Assembly: GCA_023130975.1 (NCBI GenBank)
Contig: JAGMAD010000005.1
Coordinates: 22,933 to 86,932, forward strand
DNA: 64,000 bases
Direction: 5' to 3'
From: Candidatus Parcubacteria bacterium
GTDB taxonomy: Bacteria; Patescibacteriota; Minisyncoccia; Minisyncoccales; JAGMDC01
Made by a program: the position numbers and the translations under genes
Shown here: in pieces, positions 4,366-57,035 of the stretch
How the letters are laid out: each line of letters opens with the position of its first letter
How positions within the stretch are numbered: the first letter of the stretch is position 1
Notes under the pieces: model-generated
The model's database searches: none
Told to the model about the DNA's origin: nothing
What the model saw: the letters and a program-made list of their open reading frames with translations, nothing else

Positions 4366-4640
4366 AATTCTTAAAATTTTAAAATTAAAAATTTTCGACC
4401 TCTTAAATTAGTATAGCAAAAATTGCCAAAAAGAAAAGACCAAAGGTGCTTTCAGAGAACAGAGCTTTTCTTGCGAAAAGCAGAGGAGAGAGATTTCCCG
4501 TCCTGCAAAAGTGACTCTGGCCTTGTTGGGTTTTTTAAAGATACTATTTTTCCTTTTTCCAATGGGCAAATAAATTGTCCGCTGGAAAAAAGAAAAAAGG
4601 GAAGAAAAAAATAAATTTTTTTTATTTTTTAGAGTGGTTT

Positions 4641-4979
4641 CTATAAAAGAAAACTACTCTTTTGGAGATATATTTCATCGCCTTCCCATAGGGAGAAGCG
4701 AGAGAGAATATCTCCGAGGAGAAAGAGATCACTCTTTTCCTGTTCAACCCACGGTTCTCTTGTCCCATCTTCTCCAACAGGGAGTATGGAACGAACAAAC
4801 ACTCTGGTAAAGTGTTCACCGTAGGCCGGGACGATCCAAAATTCATTATCTGGATCGTTCATTCCAACCCCGTATGGGATTGGAGAATCCTTTACTGCCA
4901 CAAAGCGGTATATTTTGCCATTCACTTTCATCTTTTTTACCTCCTCTTCAATCGACCAATGGTCTGGTAAACTCACCAT
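4641..4979 (-). CDS. Hypothetical protein (112 aa)
   Basis: ORF-track ORF. The overlapping ORF 4622..4846 in another frame is rejected. A TTGACA-N17-TATACA promoter lies about 150 nt upstream. Confidence 0.55.
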   Translation of the reverse strand: MVSLPDHWSIEEEVKKMKVNGKIYRFVAVKDSPIPYGVGMNDPDNEFWIVPAYGEHFTRVFVRSILPVGEDGTREPWVEQEKSDLFLLGDILSRFSLWEGDEIYLQKSSFLL

Positions 4980-10739: not shown

Positions 10740-11978
10740 CTAAACATTTTTAAAGTATTTAATTAAACATTTTTTAAATTTTTCTAAATTCTCGTTTTTC
10801 ACAGTAAAGCCGGCAGCCGGCGCGTGGCCGCCAAAAGTCATTAAAAGCTTTTGACAGCTTTTCATTGCTTTTACAGCATCCATATTAGAAGGCACTCGCA
10901 CTGCGCCCATACTGTTTTCCTTTCTCTTTTTAAAAATAAAAGTGGGCTTTTTATGCTTATTGCAGACCCTCGAAGCTACCGAACCAATTAAGACATTAGG
11001 CCAGCCAATATCCCCTTCAAAAATTACAGAATCAGAGTTATCTAAAATTCTCTCTTCTACCTGTTCTACAATGTCTTTTATCTGAGAACGTCTTGCTTCA
11101 TTTCTGTCCAATAACTTTTCTACTAAATTTTTTGCTTTTCCCTTGTTCTGGCAAGTAAGAAGCAAGTATGCCTCGGTCAAATGGTCTTTAATTTCGCTTA
11201 CATTCAAAGCAGAAACAATTTTTTGAACTTTTTCTTTTTCTTTTAATCCGCCAGCTGGCGAATTTAGAGAGTTAATTTCAAAAAAAACTTTTAATCCTAT
11301 CCGTTGAGTGTCTTTTAGGGACTGAAGCCCTTTTTCAATATATGTTTTGTTATCTTCTTCTCGAACCATCATATCAGCGATAGTAGCTAAAGCCGCTAAT
11401 TCTAAAAAACTATTATCTAATGAATTGCTCATTTTGTCTTTAAGCATAACCTTCGTCAATTCATAAACAAGACCAGCAGCGGCAAATTCTTTAAAGGGAT
11501 AGTTATCGTCTTTTTGTTTTGGGTCAACGATAATTGAGGCATCTGGCAAAGAATCAATTACCTGATGATGGTCAATAATAATTGTTTCCAAACCAAGTTT
11601 TTTGGCTATTTTAACTTCTTCAAAGTTAGTGATACCCAAATCTAAGGCAATAAGCAGAGCTGGCGAGAGATGCTTTAAAAAAGCCAAGGCATTTTTATTG
11701 ATTCCATAACCTTCATTTTCTCGGTCCACAAAATAAACCTCCACACCATAACGAGGACTGACTTCGTCAGTTTTAGTGCCAAAGGCACTATGTCCTCGTT
11801 TGGTGTGGGGGTAAACAGCAGCAATATTCCCTTCCAAATTCTCAATAGCTTCCTCTAAAATAACTACTGAAGCAGTGCCGTCTAAATCAGCATCACCATA
11901 GATAATGATTTTCTCTTTATTTTTGATTGCCTTTAGAATTCTATTAGCTGCTTTTTTTAAATTTTTGATTTCAGGCAT
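10740..11978 (-). CDS. DHH-family phosphoesterase, RecJ-like
   Basis: IIIYGDADLDGTASVVILEE, the DHH motif (IIIDHHQV) and the DHHA1-like C-terminus GGHAPAAG. It contains a 26-codon insertion, listed as a mobile_element at 11738-11811. Confidence 0.8.
   Translation of the reverse strand: MPEIKNLKKAANRILKAIKNKEKIIIYGDADLDGTASVVILEEAIENLEGNIAAVYPHTKRGHSAFGTKTDEVSPRYGVEVYFVDRENEGYGINKNALAFLKHLSPALLIALDLGITNFEEVKIAKKLGLETIIIDHHQVIDSLPDASIIVDPKQKDDNYPFKEFAAAGLVYELTKVMLKDKMSNSLDNSFLELAALATIADMMVREEDNKTYIEKGLQSLKDTQRIGLKVFFEINSLNSPAGGLKEKEKVQKIVSALNVSEIKDHLTEAYLLLTCQNKGKAKNLVEKLLDRNEARRSQIKDIVEQVEERILDNSDSVIFEGDIGWPNVLIGSVASRVCNKHKKPTFIFKKRKENSMGAVRVPSNMDAVKAMKSCQKLLMTFGGHAPAAGFTVKNENLEKFKKCLIKYFKNV
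11738..11811. mobile_element. 74-nt palindromic MITE-like element inserted in frame in the recJ-like gene
   Basis: The terminal inverted repeats are CCTCCACACCATAACGAGGAC and GTCCTCGTTTGGTGTGGGGG. TAAA direct repeats flank it at 11734-11737 and 11812-11815. Element plus duplication is 78 nt. Confidence 0.7.
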
Positions 11979-11990
11979 ATTACCCCTTGA

Positions 11991-12073
11991 CCCCCCACCA
12001 CTTTGTCAAAAGTCAAAATAAATGAGGAAATATTTAGGAAATTTTAGATGGCGTTTTACAAAGTGGTGGGGGG
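11991..12073. mobile_element. 83-nt palindromic MITE-like element, intergenic copy
   Basis: Perfect 16-bp terminal inverted repeats CCCCCCACCACTTTGT (11991-12006) and ACAAAGTGGTGGGGGG (12058-12073). TTGA direct repeats flank it at 11987-11990 and 12074-12077. Confidence 0.7.
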
Positions 12074-12101
12074 TTGATAAGATTTTATGGTTGTGTATAA
12101 T
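12074..12101 (+). promoter_or_regulatory. Candidate plus-strand promoter TTGATA-N16-TATAAT with no downstream ORF
   Basis: TTGATA at 12074-12079 and TATAAT at 12096-12101. The -35 box overlaps the right flanking TTGA of the element. Confidence 0.4.
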
Positions 12102-12330
12102 GAAAATTGCCATGATAGGCACAATAGGAAAGTTTTGAAAACGCGTGAACCGGGACCATAAAAGTTGCCCATTTGGTAACTTTTGGAAAGGTAGCAATAG
12201 GAATGAGATAGGAGCAACTATCAAATGTATTTTTTAGGAGCCGTTTGGCTCAATGCAGATAGCATCCTATCCTTCTCCTATTGTCATATAGCACACTTAC
12301 AATTTCATAGATTTCATTTCTCACGATCAT

Positions 12331-12367
12331 AAGGTATTGCCATATTAGGAATACCTTCCTTTTTTTA
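12331..12367 (+). terminator. Candidate plus-strand intrinsic terminator
   Basis: AAGGTATT (12331-12338), a loop, AATACCTT (12350-12357), then CCTTTTTTT. It is oriented for the plus strand although both neighbouring genes are on the minus strand. Confidence 0.4.
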
Positions 12368-12390
12368 TTATAATGAGCGTCTCCTAAAAA

Positions 12391-13512
12391 TTACTTTCCC
12401 GAGCATATTGCTTCTATTCCTACCAACTTTTCATCAACTAAATAATCAAGCATTGCGCCGCCGCCAGTGGAAACAAAACTAAATTTTTTAATTAAACCAA
12501 CCCTGGTTAAAAACTCAATCGTCTCCCCTCCTCCAACTACTGAAAAAGCTTTACCTTTAACAACAGCTTTGGCAATCTCTCTTGTAGCTTTAGAAAATCT
12601 CTTTTCTTCAGTTTTTCCCAATGGACCATTCCAAAAAATGGTTTTTGCTTTTTTAATTTTTTCAATAAATATTTTTATTGTTTTTTCTCCAATATCACCG
12701 CTATCCACCCAGTCCACAGGAAGAATAATTTTTTCTGGATATTTAAATTTTACATTCTGCCATTCTATTTCTTTAGGTATCAGGCCGCCAATTAAAACAT
12801 AATCAGTTGTTTCAGAAAGTTTGTTAATCAATTTTACTTTTGTTTTTACTTTGGCGCCGCCAATTATTGCTATTAAAGGTTTTTTTGGCTTAAACATTAA
12901 TTGTTTCAATGTCTCTATTTCTTTTTCTACTGAAAAACCAATACCTGAAGGCAAAAACTTTGGCAGACCAGTAATTGAGGCATGGGAACGATGGCAAACA
13001 GCAAAAGCATCATTAATATAAACCCCGCACCTTTTGTCGGCTAACTTTCTTAATTTAGGTGCTGAAGGTACCTTGCTGACAAAAGGTGCGGGGTAAATAT
13101 CGCCTGTTAATTTTGCCAAGTCCTTCGCAAATTTTTCATTATTTTCTTTCTCCCCTTTGTAAAATCTTAAATTCTCCAAAACAACAATATCTCCTGATTC
13201 CATTTTTTCTATTTCCTTTTCAACCTTATCGCCAATACAATCCGAAAAAAACCTAACTTTTTTATTTAATAATTCTCCTAATCTATTGGCAATTGGTCTT
13301 AAGCTAAACTTTTCTTCTCTTTTTTCCGGCCTGCCGAGATGACTAATTATAATAATCTTAGCTTGATTTTTTGCCAAATATTCAATGCTGGGAATAGCTG
13401 CTTTAATCCGAAAATCATCTAAAATATCCCCTTGTTTTGACAAAGGGACATTAAAATCAGTTCTTAATAAAACTCTTTTTCCTTGAAAATCAAAATCTTT
13501 TAATGTCTTCAT
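12391..13512 (-). CDS. pgk: Phosphoglycerate kinase, carrying a 25-codon element-derived insertion
   Basis: KRVLLRTDFNVP, IIISHLGRP, INDAFAVCHRSHAS, GGAKVKTK and STGGGAMLDYL. The ATG overlaps the stop of the upstream ATPase gene (ATGA). Confidence 0.93.
   Translation of the reverse strand: MKTLKDFDFQGKRVLLRTDFNVPLSKQGDILDDFRIKAAIPSIEYLAKNQAKIIIISHLGRPEKREEKFSLRPIANRLGELLNKKVRFFSDCIGDKVEKEIEKMESGDIVVLENLRFYKGEKENNEKFAKDLAKLTGDIYPAPFVSKVPSAPKLRKLADKRCGVYINDAFAVCHRSHASITGLPKFLPSGIGFSVEKEIETLKQLMFKPKKPLIAIIGGAKVKTKVKLINKLSETTDYVLIGGLIPKEIEWQNVKFKYPEKIILPVDWVDSGDIGEKTIKIFIEKIKKAKTIFWNGPLGKTEEKRFSKATREIAKAVVKGKAFSVVGGGETIEFLTRVGLIKKFSFVSTGGGAMLDYLVDEKLVGIEAICSGK
13023..13093. mobile_element. 71-nt palindromic MITE-like element inserted in frame in pgk
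   Basis: Perfect 16-bp terminal inverted repeats CCCCGCACCTTTTGTC (13023-13038) and GACAAAAGGTGCGGGG (13078-13093). TAAA flanks lie at 13019-13022 and 13094-13097. The total of 75 nt equals 25 codons. Confidence 0.75.
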
Positions 13513-18007: not shown

Positions 18008-19036
18008 ATGCCATTCAGAGAATCAAAATTTAAAAAATCGCCTGAGATAGAGCTACAAAAAAAAGAGGAAAAAGTAGAACCAGAAATAGAAAAAGTTGAG
18101 AAAGAAGGAATAAAAAAAGAAAAAGAATTTAAAAAAACAGCAAAAGAAGATTTAGAAAAGGCGAGAGGAGAAGCAAATCAAGCGTATGAAAAAGAAGAAA
18201 ATATTTTTGAAAAAGAGCCATTAATATCTGAAAATTTTGAGATTTATTATAATAATGAGATAAAAAATATTTTAGAAGACGGCGATGAGAAAAGATTTGA
18301 TGAAGTAAAAGAATTTGTTGATAAGACATTGGGTTCAAAAAGAGATATGGGGGGCGAGAAATCAAAAATCTATTTATTTTCAGATAAAGAAAAATATTCT
18401 AAATTCTTAGAGGAAAATTTTCCAAATATAAGGCCAGAGCCGGCAACTTTTGATAAAGAAACTAAAAGCGTTTTTAAATATGTATCTGTTACAAGAAAAG
18501 AGGAAATAGAAAAATATAAGGATTTATTACAAGAAAAAGGAATTTCTGAGGAAGAAATCAAAAATACTACCCGCAGCGGTATATTTTCCGGAGTGGGTCA
18601 TGAACTTGGACATTTACATCCGTTTTTTGGCGGAGTTGGCAATGAGAAATCAGAGAGCAAATGGGAGCAAGAAATGGTCTGTATTTTCATTGGAGAAAAA
18701 ATTAGAACAGATTTTGGCAATAAGCGTTTTAGAAAACATCAATTTGAACAATCTCAAAAAGAATTTAGAGAATTAGAAAAGAAGAGTGAAAGTTTTTCAT
18801 GGGAAGAAACAGGGAAAGATTGGCAAGGTGAAATTAAAAATTGGGAGGGATTTGTTTATCCTTGGCTTGAGAAAAAATACGGATTAGAGAAATTACAAGA
18901 ATTTTGGCAAAAAATGTTTAAGGAAGGAAAAACCATAACTAAAGCAGTAGAAGATGTTTATGGCAAAGATATTGATAAATTAGAAGAAGAATTTCAAACG
19001 GATATATTGAAAGCGAAAGACTACTCTTTGAAATAA
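18008..19036 (+). CDS. Hypothetical HExxH protein (putative zinc metallopeptidase) with a Lys/Glu-rich N-terminus
   Basis: 342 aa with the GVGHELGHLH motif. No signal peptide is evident. One of the few plus-strand genes. Confidence 0.5.
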   Translation: MPFRESKFKKSPEIELQKKEEKVEPEIEKVEKEGIKKEKEFKKTAKEDLEKARGEANQAYEKEENIFEKEPLISENFEIYYNNEIKNILEDGDEKRFDEVKEFVDKTLGSKRDMGGEKSKIYLFSDKEKYSKFLEENFPNIRPEPATFDKETKSVFKYVSVTRKEEIEKYKDLLQEKGISEEEIKNTTRSGIFSGVGHELGHLHPFFGGVGNEKSESKWEQEMVCIFIGEKIRTDFGNKRFRKHQFEQSQKEFRELEKKSESFSWEETGKDWQGEIKNWEGFVYPWLEKKYGLEKLQEFWQKMFKEGKTITKAVEDVYGKDIDKLEEEFQTDILKAKDYSLK

Positions 19037-27228: not shown

Positions 27229-27296
27229 CCCCGCACCTTTTCTAGACAGCTTTGAATTTTTGAAGCCTTTGGCTTCTGTCCAGAAAAGGTGCGGGG
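27229..27296. mobile_element. 68-nt palindromic element copy forming a 23-bp stem with a T-run upstream of secA
   Basis: AACCCCGCACCTTTTCTAGACAG ... CTGTCCAGAAAAGGTGCGGGGTT. The terminal 13 nt CCCCGCACCTTTT are identical to the pgk copy. On the minus strand it is followed by GTTTTTTTTAT. Confidence 0.7.
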
Positions 27297-30530: not shown

Positions 30531-31691
30531 ATGTATTTTGTTCATCCCCAAATAAATTTAAACAAAAAAAATTTTCAGAAAATATTCTCTTCTTTTTTCC
30601 GAACTCCTGATTCAAAGGGCTTAAACAAAAAGCTCTCTTCTTTCTTTCCGGAAAAGCAGATTGTTTTTACTGACATGGGCAGGTCGGCTTTTCAAATCAT
30701 AATTGAAAAAATGAATTTAAGAAACAGCCAGATGCTTTTTCCTGCTTACATCTGCGATATCTTCCTGCCCATTTTTAAGAAATATAATATTAAACCGATT
30801 TTCTTAGATGCTGATATTAAGACCTTTAATTTAAAAATTGAAGAAATGGAAAAGAAAACCAGTCCCCAAACCAAATCTATTTTTGTTTCCCATATTTACG
30901 GCCTGCCTAATAACATAAATAAGATATTGTTTATCGCTAAAAAACATAATTTAAAAGTCATTGAGGACTGCGCCCATAGTTTTGGGATAAAAAAGGGAAA
31001 AAGATATTTAGGAAATTTTGGTGAGGCCTCTTTGTTCAGTTTATACAAATTTCTTCCGGTTGCTAGAGGAGGAATGCTGGTCTGTCCCAAGAACTGGAAA
31101 ATAGATTTAGAAGAAACATCTTTCAGTCCCCGTGATTTTATTTCTTTCTTAAACCATTTTCCTTTTTGGGCTTTTCTGTTTAAAAAATTTGGCGGCTTCG
31201 TTTCTCCAAAAATAATAAGAAAAGAAAAGCTGTCTAAGACCGGAGGAATTAACAAGGTCTCTTTGAATCTATTTTCTTCTCTCTTTGAAGAACACCAGAA
31301 AAATTTAAAAAAAAGAATAAATCTTGGCTTGTTTTTTCAAAAAGAACTTAAAAATTTAGGCTTTGAGACCCGGGAAGGAAAAGAGAATGGTTTTTGCTAT
31401 CTTTCTGTTTTAATGCCAAAAAAATTGAGAGAAAAAAGAGATGATTTTATAAAAGGACTGAGAAAAGAAGGTGTCCATTGTACAAGAATGTGGTATAGTC
31501 CTATAGTTCTTAATCCGGAAGCGCAAAAAAAATACAAATTAGACCTAAATGAATTTCCAAATACCATAGAGATAAGCCAAAGAGTTATTAATTTTCCTTT
31601 GCAGGATTTCTTTCAGAAAAAAGACATAAAAGAAATGATTGGAAAAATAAAGAAAGTGCTTAATTCACTTGACCCCGTAGTGAAAATTTGA
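30531..31691 (+). CDS. DegT/DnrJ/EryC1/StrS-family protein (aminotransferase-like)
   Basis: PAYICDIFLPIFKKYNIKPIFLDAD, VSHIYGLP, VIEDCAHSFG and SLYKFLPVARGG. The last codons and the stop lie inside a palindromic element. Confidence 0.6.
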   Translation: MYFVHPQINLNKKNFQKIFSSFFRTPDSKGLNKKLSSFFPEKQIVFTDMGRSAFQIIIEKMNLRNSQMLFPAYICDIFLPIFKKYNIKPIFLDADIKTFNLKIEEMEKKTSPQTKSIFVSHIYGLPNNINKILFIAKKHNLKVIEDCAHSFGIKKGKRYLGNFGEASLFSLYKFLPVARGGMLVCPKNWKIDLEETSFSPRDFISFLNHFPFWAFLFKKFGGFVSPKIIRKEKLSKTGGINKVSLNLFSSLFEEHQKNLKKRINLGLFFQKELKNLGFETREGKENGFCYLSVLMPKKLREKRDDFIKGLRKEGVHCTRMWYSPIVLNPEAQKKYKLDLNEFPNTIEISQRVINFPLQDFFQKKDIKEMIGKIKKVLNSLDPVVKI

Positions 31692-31748
31692 CAAAGTTTT
31701 CTTTTGGAAAACTCATATCGCAAAGCGAGTCAAATTTCTACTACGGGG
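31673..31748. mobile_element. 76-nt palindromic MITE-like element overlapping the 3' end of the DegT-like gene
   Basis: The arms are CCCCGTAGTGAAAATTTGAC and GTCAAATTTCTACTACGGGG. TTGA flanks lie at 31669-31672 and 31749-31752. The stop codon at 31689-31691 lies inside the element. Confidence 0.65.
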
Positions 31749-31834
31749 TTGACACAAGTTCTTGAATTTGCTAACATTAGATTAGTGAGTGTGAGATCCT
31801 ATGAGAAATCAAAGGAACTCCATTCTTTGTCGGC

Positions 31835-31875
31835 AAAAGACCCCGGTTTCCGGGGTCTTTTGCTTTCTCTTTTTT
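31835..31875. terminator. Bidirectional rho-independent terminator between convergent genes
   Basis: AAAAGACCCCG-gtttc-CGGGGTCTTTT followed by GCTTTCTCTTTTTT. Confidence 0.75.
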
Positions 31876-53209: not shown

Positions 53210-53623
53210 ATGATAATCTCTAAGAAACAAACAGGAGAAATTGGAGAAAGAATTGCCGAGAATTTTTTAAAGAAAAAAGGATATAAAATTTTGGACAGGA
53301 ATTTTTTCACTCGTTTGGCTTTGGGCCCTAAAACCGGAGAAATTGATATTATTGCTGAGAAAGAAGAAACAATCTCATTCGTAGAAGTTAAAACAATAGA
53401 AATCTCCCCTCGCGGCTTCGCCGCAAGGGGAGATTTTATCCCACCAGAGCAAAAAGTTAATTTCCAAAAACAAAGAAAAATAATAAAAACTGCTCAAATC
53501 TGGCTTTCCAAAAACAAAATGCCCCTGAATAAAAAATGGCAGATTGATGTAATCTCAATAAAAATAGATTTAGATTTGAAAAAAGCTGAAATTAAACACT
53601 TTCAAAACGCTTTTGGAGAATAA
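53210..53623 (+). CDS. yraN: YraN-family (UPF0102) endonuclease-like protein
   Basis: GEIGERIAENFLKKKGYKILDRNF...GEIDIIAEKEETISFVEVKT. I chose the ATG at 53210 because the ORF-track start at 53177 is TTG. Confidence 0.75.
   Translation: MIISKKQTGEIGERIAENFLKKKGYKILDRNFFTRLALGPKTGEIDIIAEKEETISFVEVKTIEISPRGFAARGDFIPPEQKVNFQKQRKIIKTAQIWLSKNKMPLNKKWQIDVISIKIDLDLKKAEIKHFQNAFGE
53401..53435. repeat. 35-nt GC-rich palindrome in frame inside yraN
   Basis: AATCTCCCCTCGCGGC-ttc-GCCGCAAGGGGAGATT, with 15 of 16 bp paired. It encodes ISPRGFAARGDF. Confidence 0.65.
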
Positions 53624-53646: not shown

Positions 53647-54587
53647 AACTTATTCCTGAACCACTCCACTGTCTCTTTCAATCCCCTATCTAAATTATAT
53701 TTCGGCTGACAGCCAAGCTCTTTTTTTGCTTTTTTAAAATCTAAACAGCTTCTTTTCTGCTCACCAGGTTTTTCAGGAATATGAATCTCTTTACAATTTA
53801 AATCAGCCAACTTTCTAATTTTTCTAAAAATAGTATTAATACTGGTTTCATTTGCTGTCCCAATATTAAAAACCCCGATTTTGTTTTTCTTCAAAGCCAA
53901 TATATTCGCTTCAACCACATCATTAATATAAACAAAATCCCGGGTTTGTTTTCCATCACCGTTTATTGTTGTTTCTTTACTATTTAGCATTTTATCGCAG
54001 AAAATGGCAATTACTCCTGCCTCTCCTTTTGAATTTTGTCTGGGTCCATAAACATTTGACAAACGCAAAGATACATAAGACAGACCAAAAACTTTATAAT
54101 AATAATTTAAGTATTTATCAAAAACCAATTTTTCAATCCCATATGGCGAAACAGGCATTTCAGGATATGTTTCTGGAGTAGGAATAATATCAGCGTCGCC
54201 ATAAATGGCACCGCCAGTAGAAGCAAAGATTATTTTAGAAGCGAATCTATGCGAACGATTAGGCGAAAGAACGCGAATAAAATTCTGAATTATATTTAAA
54301 GAACCGAGAATATTAATTTTGGCATCTTCAATTGGATCCTCAACTGATTTTCTTAAATCAATTTGAGCCGCTAAATGAAAAACTGTTTCTGGTTTTTCTT
54401 TTTTAAAAACATCGGAAATTTTAGGACTCCTGATGTCCAATTTATAAAATTTGGCTTTAGGATTCAAGTTTTTTTTAGTTCCGGTAGATAAATTATCAAT
54501 CACCACCACTTTATGATTTTCTTTGATTAATCTATCTACTAAATGACTTCCGATAAAACCAGCTCCCCCAGTGACTAATATCTTCAT
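53637..54587 (-). CDS. NAD-dependent NDP-sugar epimerase (GalE-like extended SDR)
   Basis: MKILVTGGAGFIGSHLVDRL, and SPYGIEK (the YxxxK motif). Confidence 0.88.
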   Translation of the reverse strand: MKILVTGGAGFIGSHLVDRLIKENHKVVVIDNLSTGTKKNLNPKAKFYKLDIRSPKISDVFKKEKPETVFHLAAQIDLRKSVEDPIEDAKINILGSLNIIQNFIRVLSPNRSHRFASKIIFASTGGAIYGDADIIPTPETYPEMPVSPYGIEKLVFDKYLNYYYKVFGLSYVSLRLSNVYGPRQNSKGEAGVIAIFCDKMLNSKETTINGDGKQTRDFVYINDVVEANILALKKNKIGVFNIGTANETSINTIFRKIRKLADLNCKEIHIPEKPGEQKRSCLDFKKAKKELGCQPKYNLDRGLKETVEWFRNKLAS

Positions 54588-54662: not shown

Positions 54663-57035
54663 ATGGAAAACAATATCGTTGAAAATAAAATAAAATGGGT
54701 TTATCTTCTGGGCTTTTTTTTAATTTTGGCCTTACCGCTTTTGAATCTACCGCCCTGGTTCTCGCCGCCTGACTGGGGGAAAACCATTGTTTTTAGGATT
54801 ATTCTATCTCTAATGATTTTTGTTTTTCTATGGCAAGTCCTTTTCCAGAAATTAAATGATAATTTATCATTGATCATTAAAAATATATTAAATAAGCAAA
54901 GTAAGGTTTTTTTAAGTTTCTGGCTCTTGATTGCTTTCTTAGGAGTTTACTTCTTGGCTACCCTATTTTCTCAAGACCCATATTTCAGCTTTTGGGGATC
55001 TCCTTACCGTGCCGGTGGATTTCTTAATTTCGCTTTCTGTATAATTTTTGCTATTTTAGCTTTTTTAATTCTCCGAAAATCTGACTGGCAAAAAATCTGG
55101 GATTTTAGTATAATTATTGGAATTTTTGTCTCATTTATTGCTATCTTTCAGCAACTCGGTCTTTTTAGTAAGGTAGTTATTCCTTTTTCCGGTAGAGCGC
55201 CTTCTACTATCGGCGGACCAATATTTTTGGCAATTTATCTTTTGCTTTTATTTTTTCCTATCTTATTTTTTGGTATTAGAGAAAAAAATCTTGTTAAGAA
55301 GTTTTTTTATTTTTTTGCTCTTTTATTATTTTTTTATGTTATCTTAAATACTGGAAGCCGAGCCGCTTATTTTGGATTATTAATTGGAATCTTTTATTTT
55401 GTTCTTTTCTACCCTGTTAAATTCCACTTTGCGGCACCCAGCCTTTTACAGAAAGGCGGGGTATTTAACAGGGTGGACCCCCACACCAAAAAGCTTTTTT
55501 TAGTCAAAATCTTTTTTGGAATCCTTTTGGTTTTAGGAATTTTGGGAGTTTATTATTTGAATGCTGATTACCAAGTCCCTCAATCTTTTCAAGAAAACAA
55601 GATTTTTAAAACAGTCAATTCAAGATTATCTATCAGTTTAGCCATAAAAGATCCTCGTTTCTCCAGTTGGGAAATTGCTTTCAGGGCAATGAAAAAAAAA
55701 CCGATTTTGGGTTATGGGCCGGAAAATTTTTCAATTGGTTTTGATAAGCATTATGACCCTTCTTTGCCATACATTGATCCGGATTGGGGCAGTTGGTATG
55801 ACCGTGCCCATAATTTTATTTTTGATATTGGGGTTACTGTAGGAATTTTAGGTCTGATTATTTACCTTTCCCTTTTTGCAGTTTTATTCTCTGGATTACA
55901 AAAACTAAAAAAAATTAAACCAGAAAAAATAATAATATATCATGGAATTCAAGCTGCTTTCTTAGCTTATTTGGCAGCTAATTTCTTTAGTTTTGATACT
56001 TTTTCAACCTACTTAATATCGTTTTTAATAATTGCTTATAGTTTAACTTTAATAAATCAATCAGAAAAAAAGCAAAATGAAATCATTAAACCAAAAATTA
56101 GAAGTGTCCAAAAACTCACGATCGTGAAAATTTGGACACTTTTAAAAAAATATAAAAAAGCAATTATTGTTATTTTATTTTTATTCTTAATCTGGTTTAT
56201 CTGGGCTTGTAATATCAAACCTTTTTGGATTAACAAAGAAATCCGTTCTACTAAAACTCAATCTCAAATTGGGAATTATCAACAAGGCCTGAAACAATTA
56301 GAAAGCGTCTTGGATTCTCACACTTATTTAGACAGTTATTTAAGATTAAATTATGTTGAGCTTATTAGCCAAAACCTAGAAAAAACTCCGCCGGCTTTTC
56401 AGGGAATTTTAGTGGAAAAAGCAATCAATGCTTTAAAGGAAAATACTGAAATCAGACCTTATTATACCAGAAACTGGTTATTGCTGGGAAATTATACCAA
56501 TGTTTTGATTGAGAAAGGAAAAAAAAACCTAAGAGGAGAAGCATATTACTATTTTGAAAAAGCTCTTCAATTAAGCCCTAAGCACTTAGAAATTTTCATT
56601 GGTCTGGCAAAAACCGATTTATTAACCAATGATTATTTAGGAGCAAAAAATAATGCCCAAAAATGCATCAATTTAAATTCAAAAGTTGGAGAATGCTGGT
56701 GGTTAATGGCTATAACTAATATCTATTTGAATAACATTGAAGAAGCCCAGGGAAACATAGAAGCAGCAAGAAAAGCAATATATCCTGTTGGCTCAAAATC
56801 CTCTACTGCTCAACTTATAAATGCCTATAATTACATCAAAAACTATGAAGAAATAGTTAAAATTTATCAAACATTAATTTTGCAAGAACCAAACAATGCT
56901 CAATATCATTTCTCCTTAGCAGTTTATTATAAAGAACTGGGTAATAATGAAAAAGCAAAAAAAGAAGCTCTAAGGGCTTTAGAGCTAATGCCAGAAGCAA
57001 AGAAACAAATAGAAGAGTTTTTAAAAACTCTTTAA
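54663..57035 (+). CDS. O-antigen-ligase-like (Wzy_C domain) polytopic membrane protein fused to C-terminal TPR repeats
   Basis: NTGSRAAYFGLLIG and YDRAHNFIFDIGVTVGILGL show the Wzy_C pattern. The C-terminal ~250 aa has TPR-like repeats (YYFEKALQLSP, AVYYKELGNNEKAKKEALRALEL). Confidence 0.75.
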   Translation: MENNIVENKIKWVYLLGFFLILALPLLNLPPWFSPPDWGKTIVFRIILSLMIFVFLWQVLFQKLNDNLSLIIKNILNKQSKVFLSFWLLIAFLGVYFLATLFSQDPYFSFWGSPYRAGGFLNFAFCIIFAILAFLILRKSDWQKIWDFSIIIGIFVSFIAIFQQLGLFSKVVIPFSGRAPSTIGGPIFLAIYLLLLFFPILFFGIREKNLVKKFFYFFALLLFFYVILNTGSRAAYFGLLIGIFYFVLFYPVKFHFAAPSLLQKGGVFNRVDPHTKKLFLVKIFFGILLVLGILGVYYLNADYQVPQSFQENKIFKTVNSRLSISLAIKDPRFSSWEIAFRAMKKKPILGYGPENFSIGFDKHYDPSLPYIDPDWGSWYDRAHNFIFDIGVTVGILGLIIYLSLFAVLFSGLQKLKKIKPEKIIIYHGIQAAFLAYLAANFFSFDTFSTYLISFLIIAYSLTLINQSEKKQNEIIKPKIRSVQKLTIVKIWTLLKKYKKAIIVILFLFLIWFIWACNIKPFWINKEIRSTKTQSQIGNYQQGLKQLESVLDSHTYLDSYLRLNYVELISQNLEKTPPAFQGILVEKAINALKENTEIRPYYTRNWLLLGNYTNVLIEKGKKNLRGEAYYYFEKALQLSPKHLEIFIGLAKTDLLTNDYLGAKNNAQKCINLNSKVGECWWLMAITNIYLNNIEEAQGNIEAARKAIYPVGSKSSTAQLINAYNYIKNYEEIVKIYQTLILQEPNNAQYHFSLAVYYKELGNNEKAKKEALRALELMPEAKKQIEEFLKTL
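55411..55474. repeat. 64-nt nested palindrome in frame inside the Wzy_C gene
   Basis: The outer 12-bp inverted repeat is ACCCTGTTAAAT and ATTTAACAGGGT. The inner one is GCCTTTT/GAAAGGC. It is followed by CCCCCACACCAAA, which is identical to the recJ element terminus. Confidence 0.6.

Follow-up and report, generated by a model that had tools for sequence, protein, structure and literature searches.

The present analysis concerns E1, a 74-nt palindromic element which lies inside a recJ-like phosphoesterase gene in a 64-kb stretch of the Candidatus Parcubacteria contig JAGMAD010000005.1 (the whole stretch of 64,000 nt is referred to below as the window). E1 is one copy of a mobile family which in its behaviour is similar to MITEs (miniature transposable elements with inverted repeats) and to Rickettsia palindromic elements (RPE), and in its partner to the Ssn nucleases. 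It is probable, at roughly 70%, that E1 is a non-autonomous, MITE-like member of a family with C-rich ends and TTKA-type target duplications, the autonomous partners of which would be longer elements coding for a GIY-YIG nuclease. The host organism, a tiny bacterium from groundwater, belongs to Patescibacteria of the Parcubacteria/Minisyncoccales type and has about 33% G+C. The parts of the insertion site are as follows.

10740-11978, minus strand: host gene, DHH/DHHA1 phosphoesterase (RecJ-like), 412 aa, with Pfam DHH and DHHA1
11734-11737: left copy of the target-site duplication, TAAA on the plus strand and TTTA in the mRNA sense; the empty site of a relative, GCTGCTGTTTATTTTGTG, has a single TTTA
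11738-11811: E1, 74-nt non-coding palindromic element inside the recJ-like gene, missing in the 17 orthologues aligned and also in the DNA of loci L002 and L003
11738-11758: left terminal inverted repeat of E1 with its extended arm, CCTCCACACCATAACGAGGAC
11759-11790: interior of E1 with two mini-hairpins, TGAC-TTC-GTCA and TAGTGCC-AAA-GGCACTA, as derived from the fold
11792-11811: right terminal inverted repeat of E1 with its arm, GTCCTCGTTTGGTGTGGGGG
11812-11815: right copy of the target-site duplication, TAAA

The two arms of E1 pair with one mismatch and one bulge. Folded as single-stranded DNA (ssDNA) the element reaches -25.6 kcal/mol, in comparison to -7.55 +/- 1.86 kcal/mol for 200 shuffles (z = -9.7), none of which was as stable, and the predicted fold contains the mini-hairpins at about 11759-11769 and about 11774-11790. 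The 78 added bases are read as 26 in-frame codons, ...AAVY[PHTKRGHSAFGTKTDEVSPRYGVEVY]FVDRENEGYG, which correspond to residues 56-81 of the protein, with a boundary that is ambiguous by two residues due to the duplicated Val-Tyr. An imperfect palindrome with both arms, two internal mini-hairpins, flanking TAAA repeats and a 26-codon in-frame insert had all been proposed in the first-pass annotation of this DNA, and they are borne out by the sequence, by the ssDNA fold, by both flanks, and by translation and orthologue alignment respectively.

The best 120 homologues of the RecJ-like protein are mostly 379-393 aa long. In an alignment of 18 sequences the 26-residue insert is unique to the window protein, and it is missing from all 17 orthologues, including those which are 88-91% identical. 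In the 91%-identical relative GCA_030612885.1 (L002; with L003) the site is empty and reads GCTGCT-GTTTATTTTGTG (GCTGCT-GTTTAT), while the window reads GCTGCTGTTTA-(element)-TTTATTTTGTG and differs from the relative by 74 nt and one duplicated TTTA. Orthologues without the peptide and an exact empty site in a relative therefore point to a recent 74-nt insertion with a 4-bp target duplication: E1 entered the recJ-like gene at the TTTA contained in GTT TAT, the codons for Val-Tyr, and added 74 + 4 = 78 nt, and the duplicated Val-Tyr rebuilds the beta-strand that runs into the conserved FVDRExEGYG motif. The orthologue comparison which the first-pass annotation had named as its own check thus falls in favour of insertion, since palindrome and peptide are lacking together. 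It could be supposed instead that the palindrome arose in place within a 26-aa loop which was ancestral or adaptive, or that the segment is an artefact of assembly. Nothing beyond the in-frame translation of the segment speaks for this explanation, and it is very improbable: the segment is found in 0 of the 17 aligned orthologues, the DNA gap equals exactly the element and one TTTA, the termini and the interior of E1 recur in copies elsewhere, and the segment is present in independent assemblies. The 412-aa protein occurs on 7 contigs, the four shown being four separate ENA/Logan samples, and as the identical protein recurs across separate samples, E1 is not an assembly artefact.

The recJ copy would have persisted by chance because it was a multiple of three, free of stops and situated in a loop, and out-of-frame insertions in such genes would have been lost. 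In an AlphaFold2 model of the protein (predicted template modelling score, pTM, 0.81) the insert is placed between helix 32-47 and strand 79-83, directly before FVDRENEGYG, and the per-residue confidence (predicted local distance difference test, pLDDT) falls below 50 only at residues 53-77. According to the prediction, the DHH domain is well folded apart from the 24 insert residues other than Val-Tyr, which make up a loop of low confidence. A low pLDDT is to be expected here because no aligned homologue carries the insert, so that the model is compatible with a tolerated loop and is not proof of one.

The relatives of E1 are numerous and widely dispersed. One genome per GTDB species (596 Gb) was scanned with the pattern ACCCCNCACCNNTT-N(35-65)-AANNGGTGNGGGGT, which has 22 fixed bases and for which, according to our own estimate, about 2 chance matches would be expected; at least 119 loci were obtained from the species-representative genomes. 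Among the matches listed, the hosts comprise many Patescibacteria lineages, Omnitrophota, Planctomycetota, Verrucomicrobiota, Latescibacterota, Gammaproteobacteria and Bdellovibrionales. The scanned loci (L011-L129) and the window together gave a census set of 124 copies. The short elements are 61-88 nt long and have termini CCCCNCACC...GGTGNGGGG and direct repeats of TTKA type, and the family is defined by its C-rich inverted ends (CCCC-N-CACC... and ...GGTG-N-GGGG) together with a 4-bp TTKA-type duplication. Carriage by phages left no sign, as the same terminus pattern gave 0 matches in 2.9 million viral contigs, where the nuclease query (see below) gave one distant relative. The element had been correctly recognised in the first-pass annotation, which missed the large mobile family and its protein-coding partner.

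Terminus positions 1-13 pair in 94-100% of copies across the family, and the three free terminus positions, which use 2-4 pair types, pair in 94-98%; as the free positions are complementary, each copy keeps matched ends. Identical 4-bp direct flanks were noticed in 56 of the 124 copies, with 11 expected and a maximum of 22 in 1000 partner shuffles, and perfectly inverted 4-bp flanks in only four. The duplicated sequence is TTTA/TAAA or TTGA/TCAA, and in a few cases TGGA, TTCA or TCCA. The reconstructed target is R-TTKA-Y, and two classes of site recur, namely GGN-TTT-ACN and TTGACA-like -35 boxes. Besides E1, the window holds four further copies (five in total):

11991-12073 (11987-12077 with the TTGA duplication): E2, 83-nt family member, 13 nt upstream of the recJ ATG
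13023-13093 (13019-13097 with the TAAA duplication): E3, 71-nt family member, in frame in pgk, 25 codons (75 nt)
27229-27296: E4, 68-nt family member, 39 nt upstream of secA, with inverted flanks (CAA/TTG) and no direct repeat
31673-31748 (31669-31752 with the TTGA duplication): E5, 76-nt family member

E2, E4 and E5 are built in the same way: they are 68-83 nt long, have termini rich in C and form stems of 14-21 bp. Empty sites in relatives are available at three loci: recJ, pgk and E2. The pgk element agrees with its first description (71 nt and TAAA, giving 75 nt). The pgk site is occupied in the window and also in L002, it is empty in L008, L009 and L010 (GATATTTATATT, GGCGATATTTATATT), and the two orthologous copies differ at 7/71 positions. 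A copy common to the window and a relative is therefore older than the recJ copy, so that of the earlier suggestion of two independent frame-preserving insertions the independence stands, and an equal age does not. The E2 site is uninterrupted in relatives (..CTTGTCAAG..), where it forms the -35 hexamer of a divergent promoter-like site; after the insertion the right-hand TTGA again begins a promoter-like site (12074-12101, 11/12 match). Copies of E2 which are 92-96% identical occur at two other loci (L033, L118) of GCA_049642725.1, a genome whose RecJ-like protein is only 74-79% identical to that of the window and whose syntenic E2 spacer is empty. Near-identical copies in a diverged genome with an empty syntenic site indicate recent movement or transfer. 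Members of the family have been inserted at many sites in many genomes, and near-identical copies occur where housekeeping proteins are only about 75% identical.

The sequence of E1 itself can be followed to other genomes. Its termini represent the variant CCCCCACACC/GGTGTGGGGG with one later substitution, the ancestral left terminus being CCCCCACACC. This variant is also present in a 32-nt mini-element of L009 (TTGA-CCCCCACACCTAATTCAGATTAGGTGTGGGGG-TTGA), and it ends both a 30-nt mini-element in L122 and a GIY-YIG-coding element of about 294 bp in L163. The interior of E1 (GACTGACTTCGTCA ... GTGCCAAAGGCAC; GTGC(C)AAAG(G)CAC) is common to the element L079, which lies in the same Nealsonbacteria genome as L002, at a different locus.

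The longer relatives, met among the fetched loci, are elements of about 280-320 bp, with paired ends 285-330 bp apart in the fetched loci, which have the family termini and the same type of flank and enclose one open reading frame (ORF) for a GIY-YIG nuclease of about 85 aa:

L050, 2340-2637: termini CCCCTCACC..., flanks TTTA/TTTA
L041, 7344-7628: termini CCCCCCACCAC..., ORF frameshifted, flanks none
L036, about 70-400: termini CCCCGCC[C/T]CCATTTTTT, flanks TTTA/TTTA
L125, about 4490-4790: termini CCCTTCACCCT, flanks TCAA/TCAA

These four ORFs match the Pfam GIY-YIG family with E = 1e-9 to 1e-15. The nucleases are 77-98 aa long, PF01541 is their only significant Pfam domain, and the catalytic residues are kept, with invariant Tyr, Tyr, Gly, Arg, His and Glu. 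Their nearest solved relative is SLX1, the alignment with E. coli YhbQ is limited to the N-terminal motif, and a search of NCBIfam gave nothing useful. At E <= 1e-10 the clade comprises 965 representatives of clusters formed at 50% identity. For two of the proteins, P0333 and P0280, a multi-copy reading was rejected, as the 17-18 contigs of each are one locus sampled many times.

The bracketing of these ORFs by the termini bears directly on another explanation, according to which the short elements are ordinary MITEs moved by an unsampled conventional transposase (e.g. of DDE type), and the GIY-YIG genes are passengers or a second parasite which shares the ends. Such a source would suit the 4-bp duplication, as a duplication from a staggered cut is the classic signature of DDE transposases, and it would also suit the terminus variants of nuclease elements and neighbouring short elements, which often differ. 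Against it, paired termini 150-7000 bp apart, in about 119 loci of up to 8 kb, enclose only GIY-YIG ORFs (L050, L041), apart from an unconvincing pair in L022. From the side of the protein, 13 metagenome loci were retrieved with a two-sequence nuclease alignment, that is by protein similarity alone, and in about 9-10 of them family-type termini tightly bracket the ORF; the nuclease ORFs of L149, L159 and L163, which come from a separate protein search, are bracketed in the same way. In addition, none of the 42 ORFs of the window that were scanned or covered by the gene table showed a transposase domain. A conventional transposase is on this evidence unlikely. The terminus-like pair of L022, with a distance of 1360 bp, was taken as chance: its ends are poor, a flanking repeat is missing, and the 315-aa ORF between them is unrelated.

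Several points nevertheless weigh against the GIY-YIG elements as partners of E1. No GIY-YIG ORF was found in the 64-kb window, and nuclease elements and short elements occur together on five contigs, on only two of which their terminus variants match. A perfect flanking repeat is missing from about half of the copies, and inverted flanks are seen in a few, E4 and L122 among them. Genes of the same GIY-YIG clade exist which are devoid of C-rich termini and lie inside tRNA genes (L144, 900-1400; L161, 500-1000). The motif of the SRM repeat bound by Ssn proteins, HGTCWYN(0-2)YYVSBRHN(0-5)WNVSBRGN(0-2)RNCYNB (with its GTC tag), has no match in the 124 elements or in the 13 nuclease loci. The characterised Ssn enzymes cut only ssDNA and are not an obvious source of a 4-bp duplication. 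GIY-YIG enzymes are, to our knowledge, hydrolases with no known strand-transfer activity, which also speaks for a conventional transposase, and we know of no biochemical or genetic demonstration of transposition by one of them. In the whole window the SRM motif has one match, at an unrelated site. In L144 and L161 the 5' part of the tRNA is duplicated on either side of the GIY-YIG gene, which represents a different mode of insertion.

A part of the nuclease clade is joined to type IV prepilin genes. Among the 149 best clade representatives (P0361-P0509), 48 are at least 190 aa long, and at least 38 run directly into the type IV prepilin motif (...KSGAG-FTLIE...). In such fusions (loci L132-L134, L050, L116/L136) the element occupies the GGN-TTT-ACN stretch which encodes Gly-Phe-Thr in the leader of the prepilin, and the nuclease ORF is not closed at the right terminus, whose translation is K-(S)-G-(A/E)-G, but runs on into the pilin. 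In L133 a single ORF (1474-2634) has GIY-YIG, N_methyl and GspH domains and adjoins a T2SSF gene. Prepilin peptidase would be expected to free both parts of the fusion.

In the mechanism which we favour, the nuclease-coding elements of about 280-320 bp would be the autonomous partners of the short elements, and their nuclease would recognise the hairpin or cruciform formed by the paired ends and mobilise short copies in trans. The putative partner resembles the single-domain GIY-YIG enzymes of Ssn type, which bind hairpin repeats and cut ssDNA; the mobilising role of the nuclease is an inference and not a demonstrated fact. The 4-bp duplication could arise by a cut-and-ligate route via cohesive TTKA ends or, alternatively, by a single-strand route as in IS200/IS605. 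It can be proposed more tentatively, at somewhat less than even odds, that the units of about 300 bp are true autonomous transposons of an unrecognised class, moved by a hydrolytic, Ssn-like structure-specific nuclease which acts on the hairpin of their own ends. In Patescibacteria, Omnitrophota, Planctomycetota and further phyla, their 28-88 nt derivatives would then have settled in promoters, in the leader codons of prepilin genes and, with the frame kept, in essential genes. The prepilin fusion (about a third of the clade) would then be a strategy of expression, the nuclease being synthesised as an outsized leader peptide that prepilin peptidase would cleave off.

The prepilin fusions also fit a link with DNA uptake, and with it the possibility that the short elements are sites of a host-domesticated Ssn-like nuclease, for example in the control of transformation or recombination, which were spread mainly by recombination and not by transposition and left the recJ copy as a neutral by-product. 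Such a role has been shown for the Neisseria NTS and SsnA, and domestication has been proposed (PMC11893778). Precise empty sites with 4-bp duplications at unrelated loci, copies within essential coding sequences and near-identical copies in diverged genomes make this explanation quite improbable for the present family; a host function is possible, yet it gives no account of how the copy arrived in recJ.

The reading frame of the copies was considered separately from their mobility. With (length + 4) taken modulo 3, the counts for remainders 0/1/2 are:

copies inside long ORFs, n = 15: 12/2/1
copies at the edge of an ORF, n = 23: 14/4/5
copies with no long open frame nearby, n = 86: 34/27/25 (about 40% in frame)

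The first-pass annotation had offered two explanations of frame preservation, selection on insert length and a frame-neutral design of the element. The former holds as a survivorship filter (the frame is kept by 12 of 15 copies within ORFs versus 34 of 86 outside), and the frame bias comes mostly from selection against frame-breaking insertions. The latter is only weakly supported. Elements of the 61-71 nt class cluster at 62, 65, 68 and 71 nt even outside ORFs (19/5/5), and there are 1.82 stop-free frames per element versus 1.55 +/- 0.08 in interior-shuffled controls; the 3-nt periodicity vanishes in longer elements and the copies are not independent, for which reason neither the periodicity nor the excess of stop-free frames is read as proof of design. 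In other genomes in-frame copies are found in genes for RecG, topoisomerase I, YchF, UvrC and HIT proteins, and they are mostly translated in one frame, with the signature [N/Y/D]PAPF...K[R/W]CGV. This signature is carried by the pgk insert, and the recJ insert in the same frame reads YPHTK...YGVEVY.

Smaller derivatives of the family were also encountered. Mini-elements of 25-38 nt, which contain little beyond both termini and some of which have TTGA duplications, are present in L009 (288-317 and 12035-12069), L012 (6942-6973), L122 (3975-4004) and L028 (1165-1194), so a bare hairpin may be the minimal mobile unit. In L012 (4466-4620) and L116 (2111-2270), truncated units of about 36 nt (GTTTACCCCTCACCTTTTTTCC-loop-GGAAAAAAGG) are repeated in tandem, and the arrays finish in one complete terminus ahead of a prepilin gene; they look as if the GGGTTTAC junction, which the element recreates, had received several insertions in turn or had undergone slippage.

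The remaining copies of the window have surroundings of their own. The promoter-like site next to E2 points away from recJ into a spacer of about 300 nt (window 11987-12400, plus strand), parts of which are conserved in L009 and L010; the spacer has no ORF and no Rfam match and may be an unannotated RNA gene. The flanks of E4 prolong its palindrome (CAA...TTG), and likewise those of a few other copies (L122, L025). E5 provides the final five codons and the stop of a DegT-type aminotransferase gene (30531-31691; Pfam), the protein ending in ...LD-PVVKI in place of an inferred ...LDTSS. E5 is followed by a promoter-like site (31749-31777, 10/12) and a strong terminator-like hairpin (31832-31864); a small transcript, about 60-90 nt in length and unmatched in Rfam, may lie between the two. 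At the gathering thresholds the Rfam matches of the whole window were limited to RNase P RNA and three tRNAs, and in E-value mode E2 gave only microRNA-hairpin matches far below threshold and nothing meaningful appeared near E5. Known RNA families do not explain the elements.

A solitary terminus lies in a gene for an O-antigen ligase (54663-57035).

55478-55490, plus strand: solo exact copy of the 13-nt terminus of E1, CCCCCACACCAAA

Even with up to 2 mismatches allowed, 0.64 matches would be expected. Just before the solo terminus, which is read as DPHTKK, there is a 64-nt palindrome (ACCCTGTTAAAT...ATTTAACAGGGT) at 55411-55474. Palindrome and terminus (55411-55490) belong to a loop which joins membrane helices of the ligase and varies in length, and the orthologue P0123 has a loop of similar length with ..HHPKK..; the whole may be an old, decayed in-frame insertion. 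Two further candidates were not counted as family members: an AT-rich imperfect repeat in an epimerase gene (53869-53947) and a hairpin in the UPF0102 gene (53400-53436), which encodes a normal part of the UPF0102 protein. A 342-aa ORF (18008-19036, plus strand), which is on the strand opposite to its neighbours and has only a sub-threshold Peptidase_MA match, is present in the population of the window (L004) and missing from the syntenic region of L002, and may be a lineage-specific gene insertion.

The insertion of palindromes in frame is thus not a peculiarity of Rickettsia, as it recurs in reduced genomes of the candidate phyla radiation and affects core genes (recJ-like, pgk, recG, topA, ychF, uvrC). 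It is possible to recognise and mask such inserts, many of which have the [N/Y/D]PAPF signature, or to employ them as strain markers. For the pairing of an Ssn-type nuclease with a hairpin repeat, which was described in 2025 and whose similarity to an insertion sequence had only been suggested, empty sites, 4-bp duplications and near-identical copies represent evidence of mobility. If the nuclease is the mobilising enzyme, the family would stand for a new transposition chemistry and a minimal mobile element, and if the units of about 300 bp are truly autonomous they would be smaller than any other autonomous transposable element known. The chance that the finding points to an unrecognised class of transposons is substantial.

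Among known systems the closest published one is that of Ssn and its SRM repeat. Ssn are single-domain GIY-YIG proteins of about 94 aa (CDD cd10448) which bind the NTS/SRM hairpin repeat and cut adjacent ssDNA (Chenal et al. 2025, Nat Commun, PMC11893778). In that work 42% of ssn genes were reported to have the repeat on both sides, NTS was rarely intragenic, and the authors likened the repeat-gene-repeat layout to an insertion sequence and compared it to REP/RAYT; target sites and duplications are not analysed there ('target site' and 'duplication' have 0 occurrences) and Patescibacteria are not mentioned (PMC11893778). The likeness consists in a single-domain GIY-YIG gene of about 85-95 aa bracketed by hairpin repeats, and in repeats dispersed in many copies in several phyla. 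The repeat sequence of the present family is in contrast unrelated, and clear 4-bp duplications, empty sites and recurrent in-frame genic copies are its own features. As the SRM motif finds no match in the family, Ssn is taken by analogy as the closest known system and as a mechanistic lead, and not as established membership. Apart from the Ssn paper (PMC11893778), the literature search found neither a GIY-YIG element with inverted repeats and target duplication nor the terminus sequences.

GIY-YIG homing endonucleases (I-TevI, Seg) likewise place a GIY-YIG catalytic domain on a selfish element, but they have extra DNA-binding domains, act through double-strand break repair into one cognate site and have no inverted-repeat ends or target duplications. 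The REP/BIME-RAYT systems resemble the family in their dispersed short palindromes and a small nuclease gene flanked by repeats, and mini-elements of 28-38 nt occur here too. REPs are, however, palindromes of 20-40 nt which are extragenic and devoid of target duplications, and the RAYT enzyme is of HUH/Y1 (IS200/IS605-type) and not GIY-YIG nature, whereas the present family lacks the GTAG/CGTC head, has CCCC... termini and duplications, and includes intragenic copies. Palindromes derived from IS200/IS605 have subterminal hairpins and insert 3' of a fixed tetranucleotide with no duplication, features which the present family does not share: the inverted repeats of the family reach the very ends, and the same tetranucleotide flanks both ends and varies among copies (TTTA, TTGA, TGGA, TTCA and others).

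In behaviour the RPE (Ogata et al. 2000, 2002) appear the closest. They are elements of about 150 bp, described in Rickettsia, which are inserted in frame in genes and encode family-specific conserved peptides (PMC10969869). Compared by description, both are short palindromic selfish repeats in frame in unrelated housekeeping genes, with a peptide that is seemingly tolerated; the present elements differ in their length of 61-88 nt, in their host phyla, in C-rich termini and TTKA duplications, and in a candidate protein-coding partner. Bacterial MITEs (Correia/CREE, ERIC, RUP, MITEAba12) share with the family a small size, terminal inverted repeats, target-site duplication, a non-coding and multi-copy nature and longer relatives with the same ends. 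The full element of about 300 bp is far smaller than any insertion sequence known to us, and, unlike in those MITEs, the longer relatives of E1 encode a GIY-YIG nuclease and not a DDE transposase.

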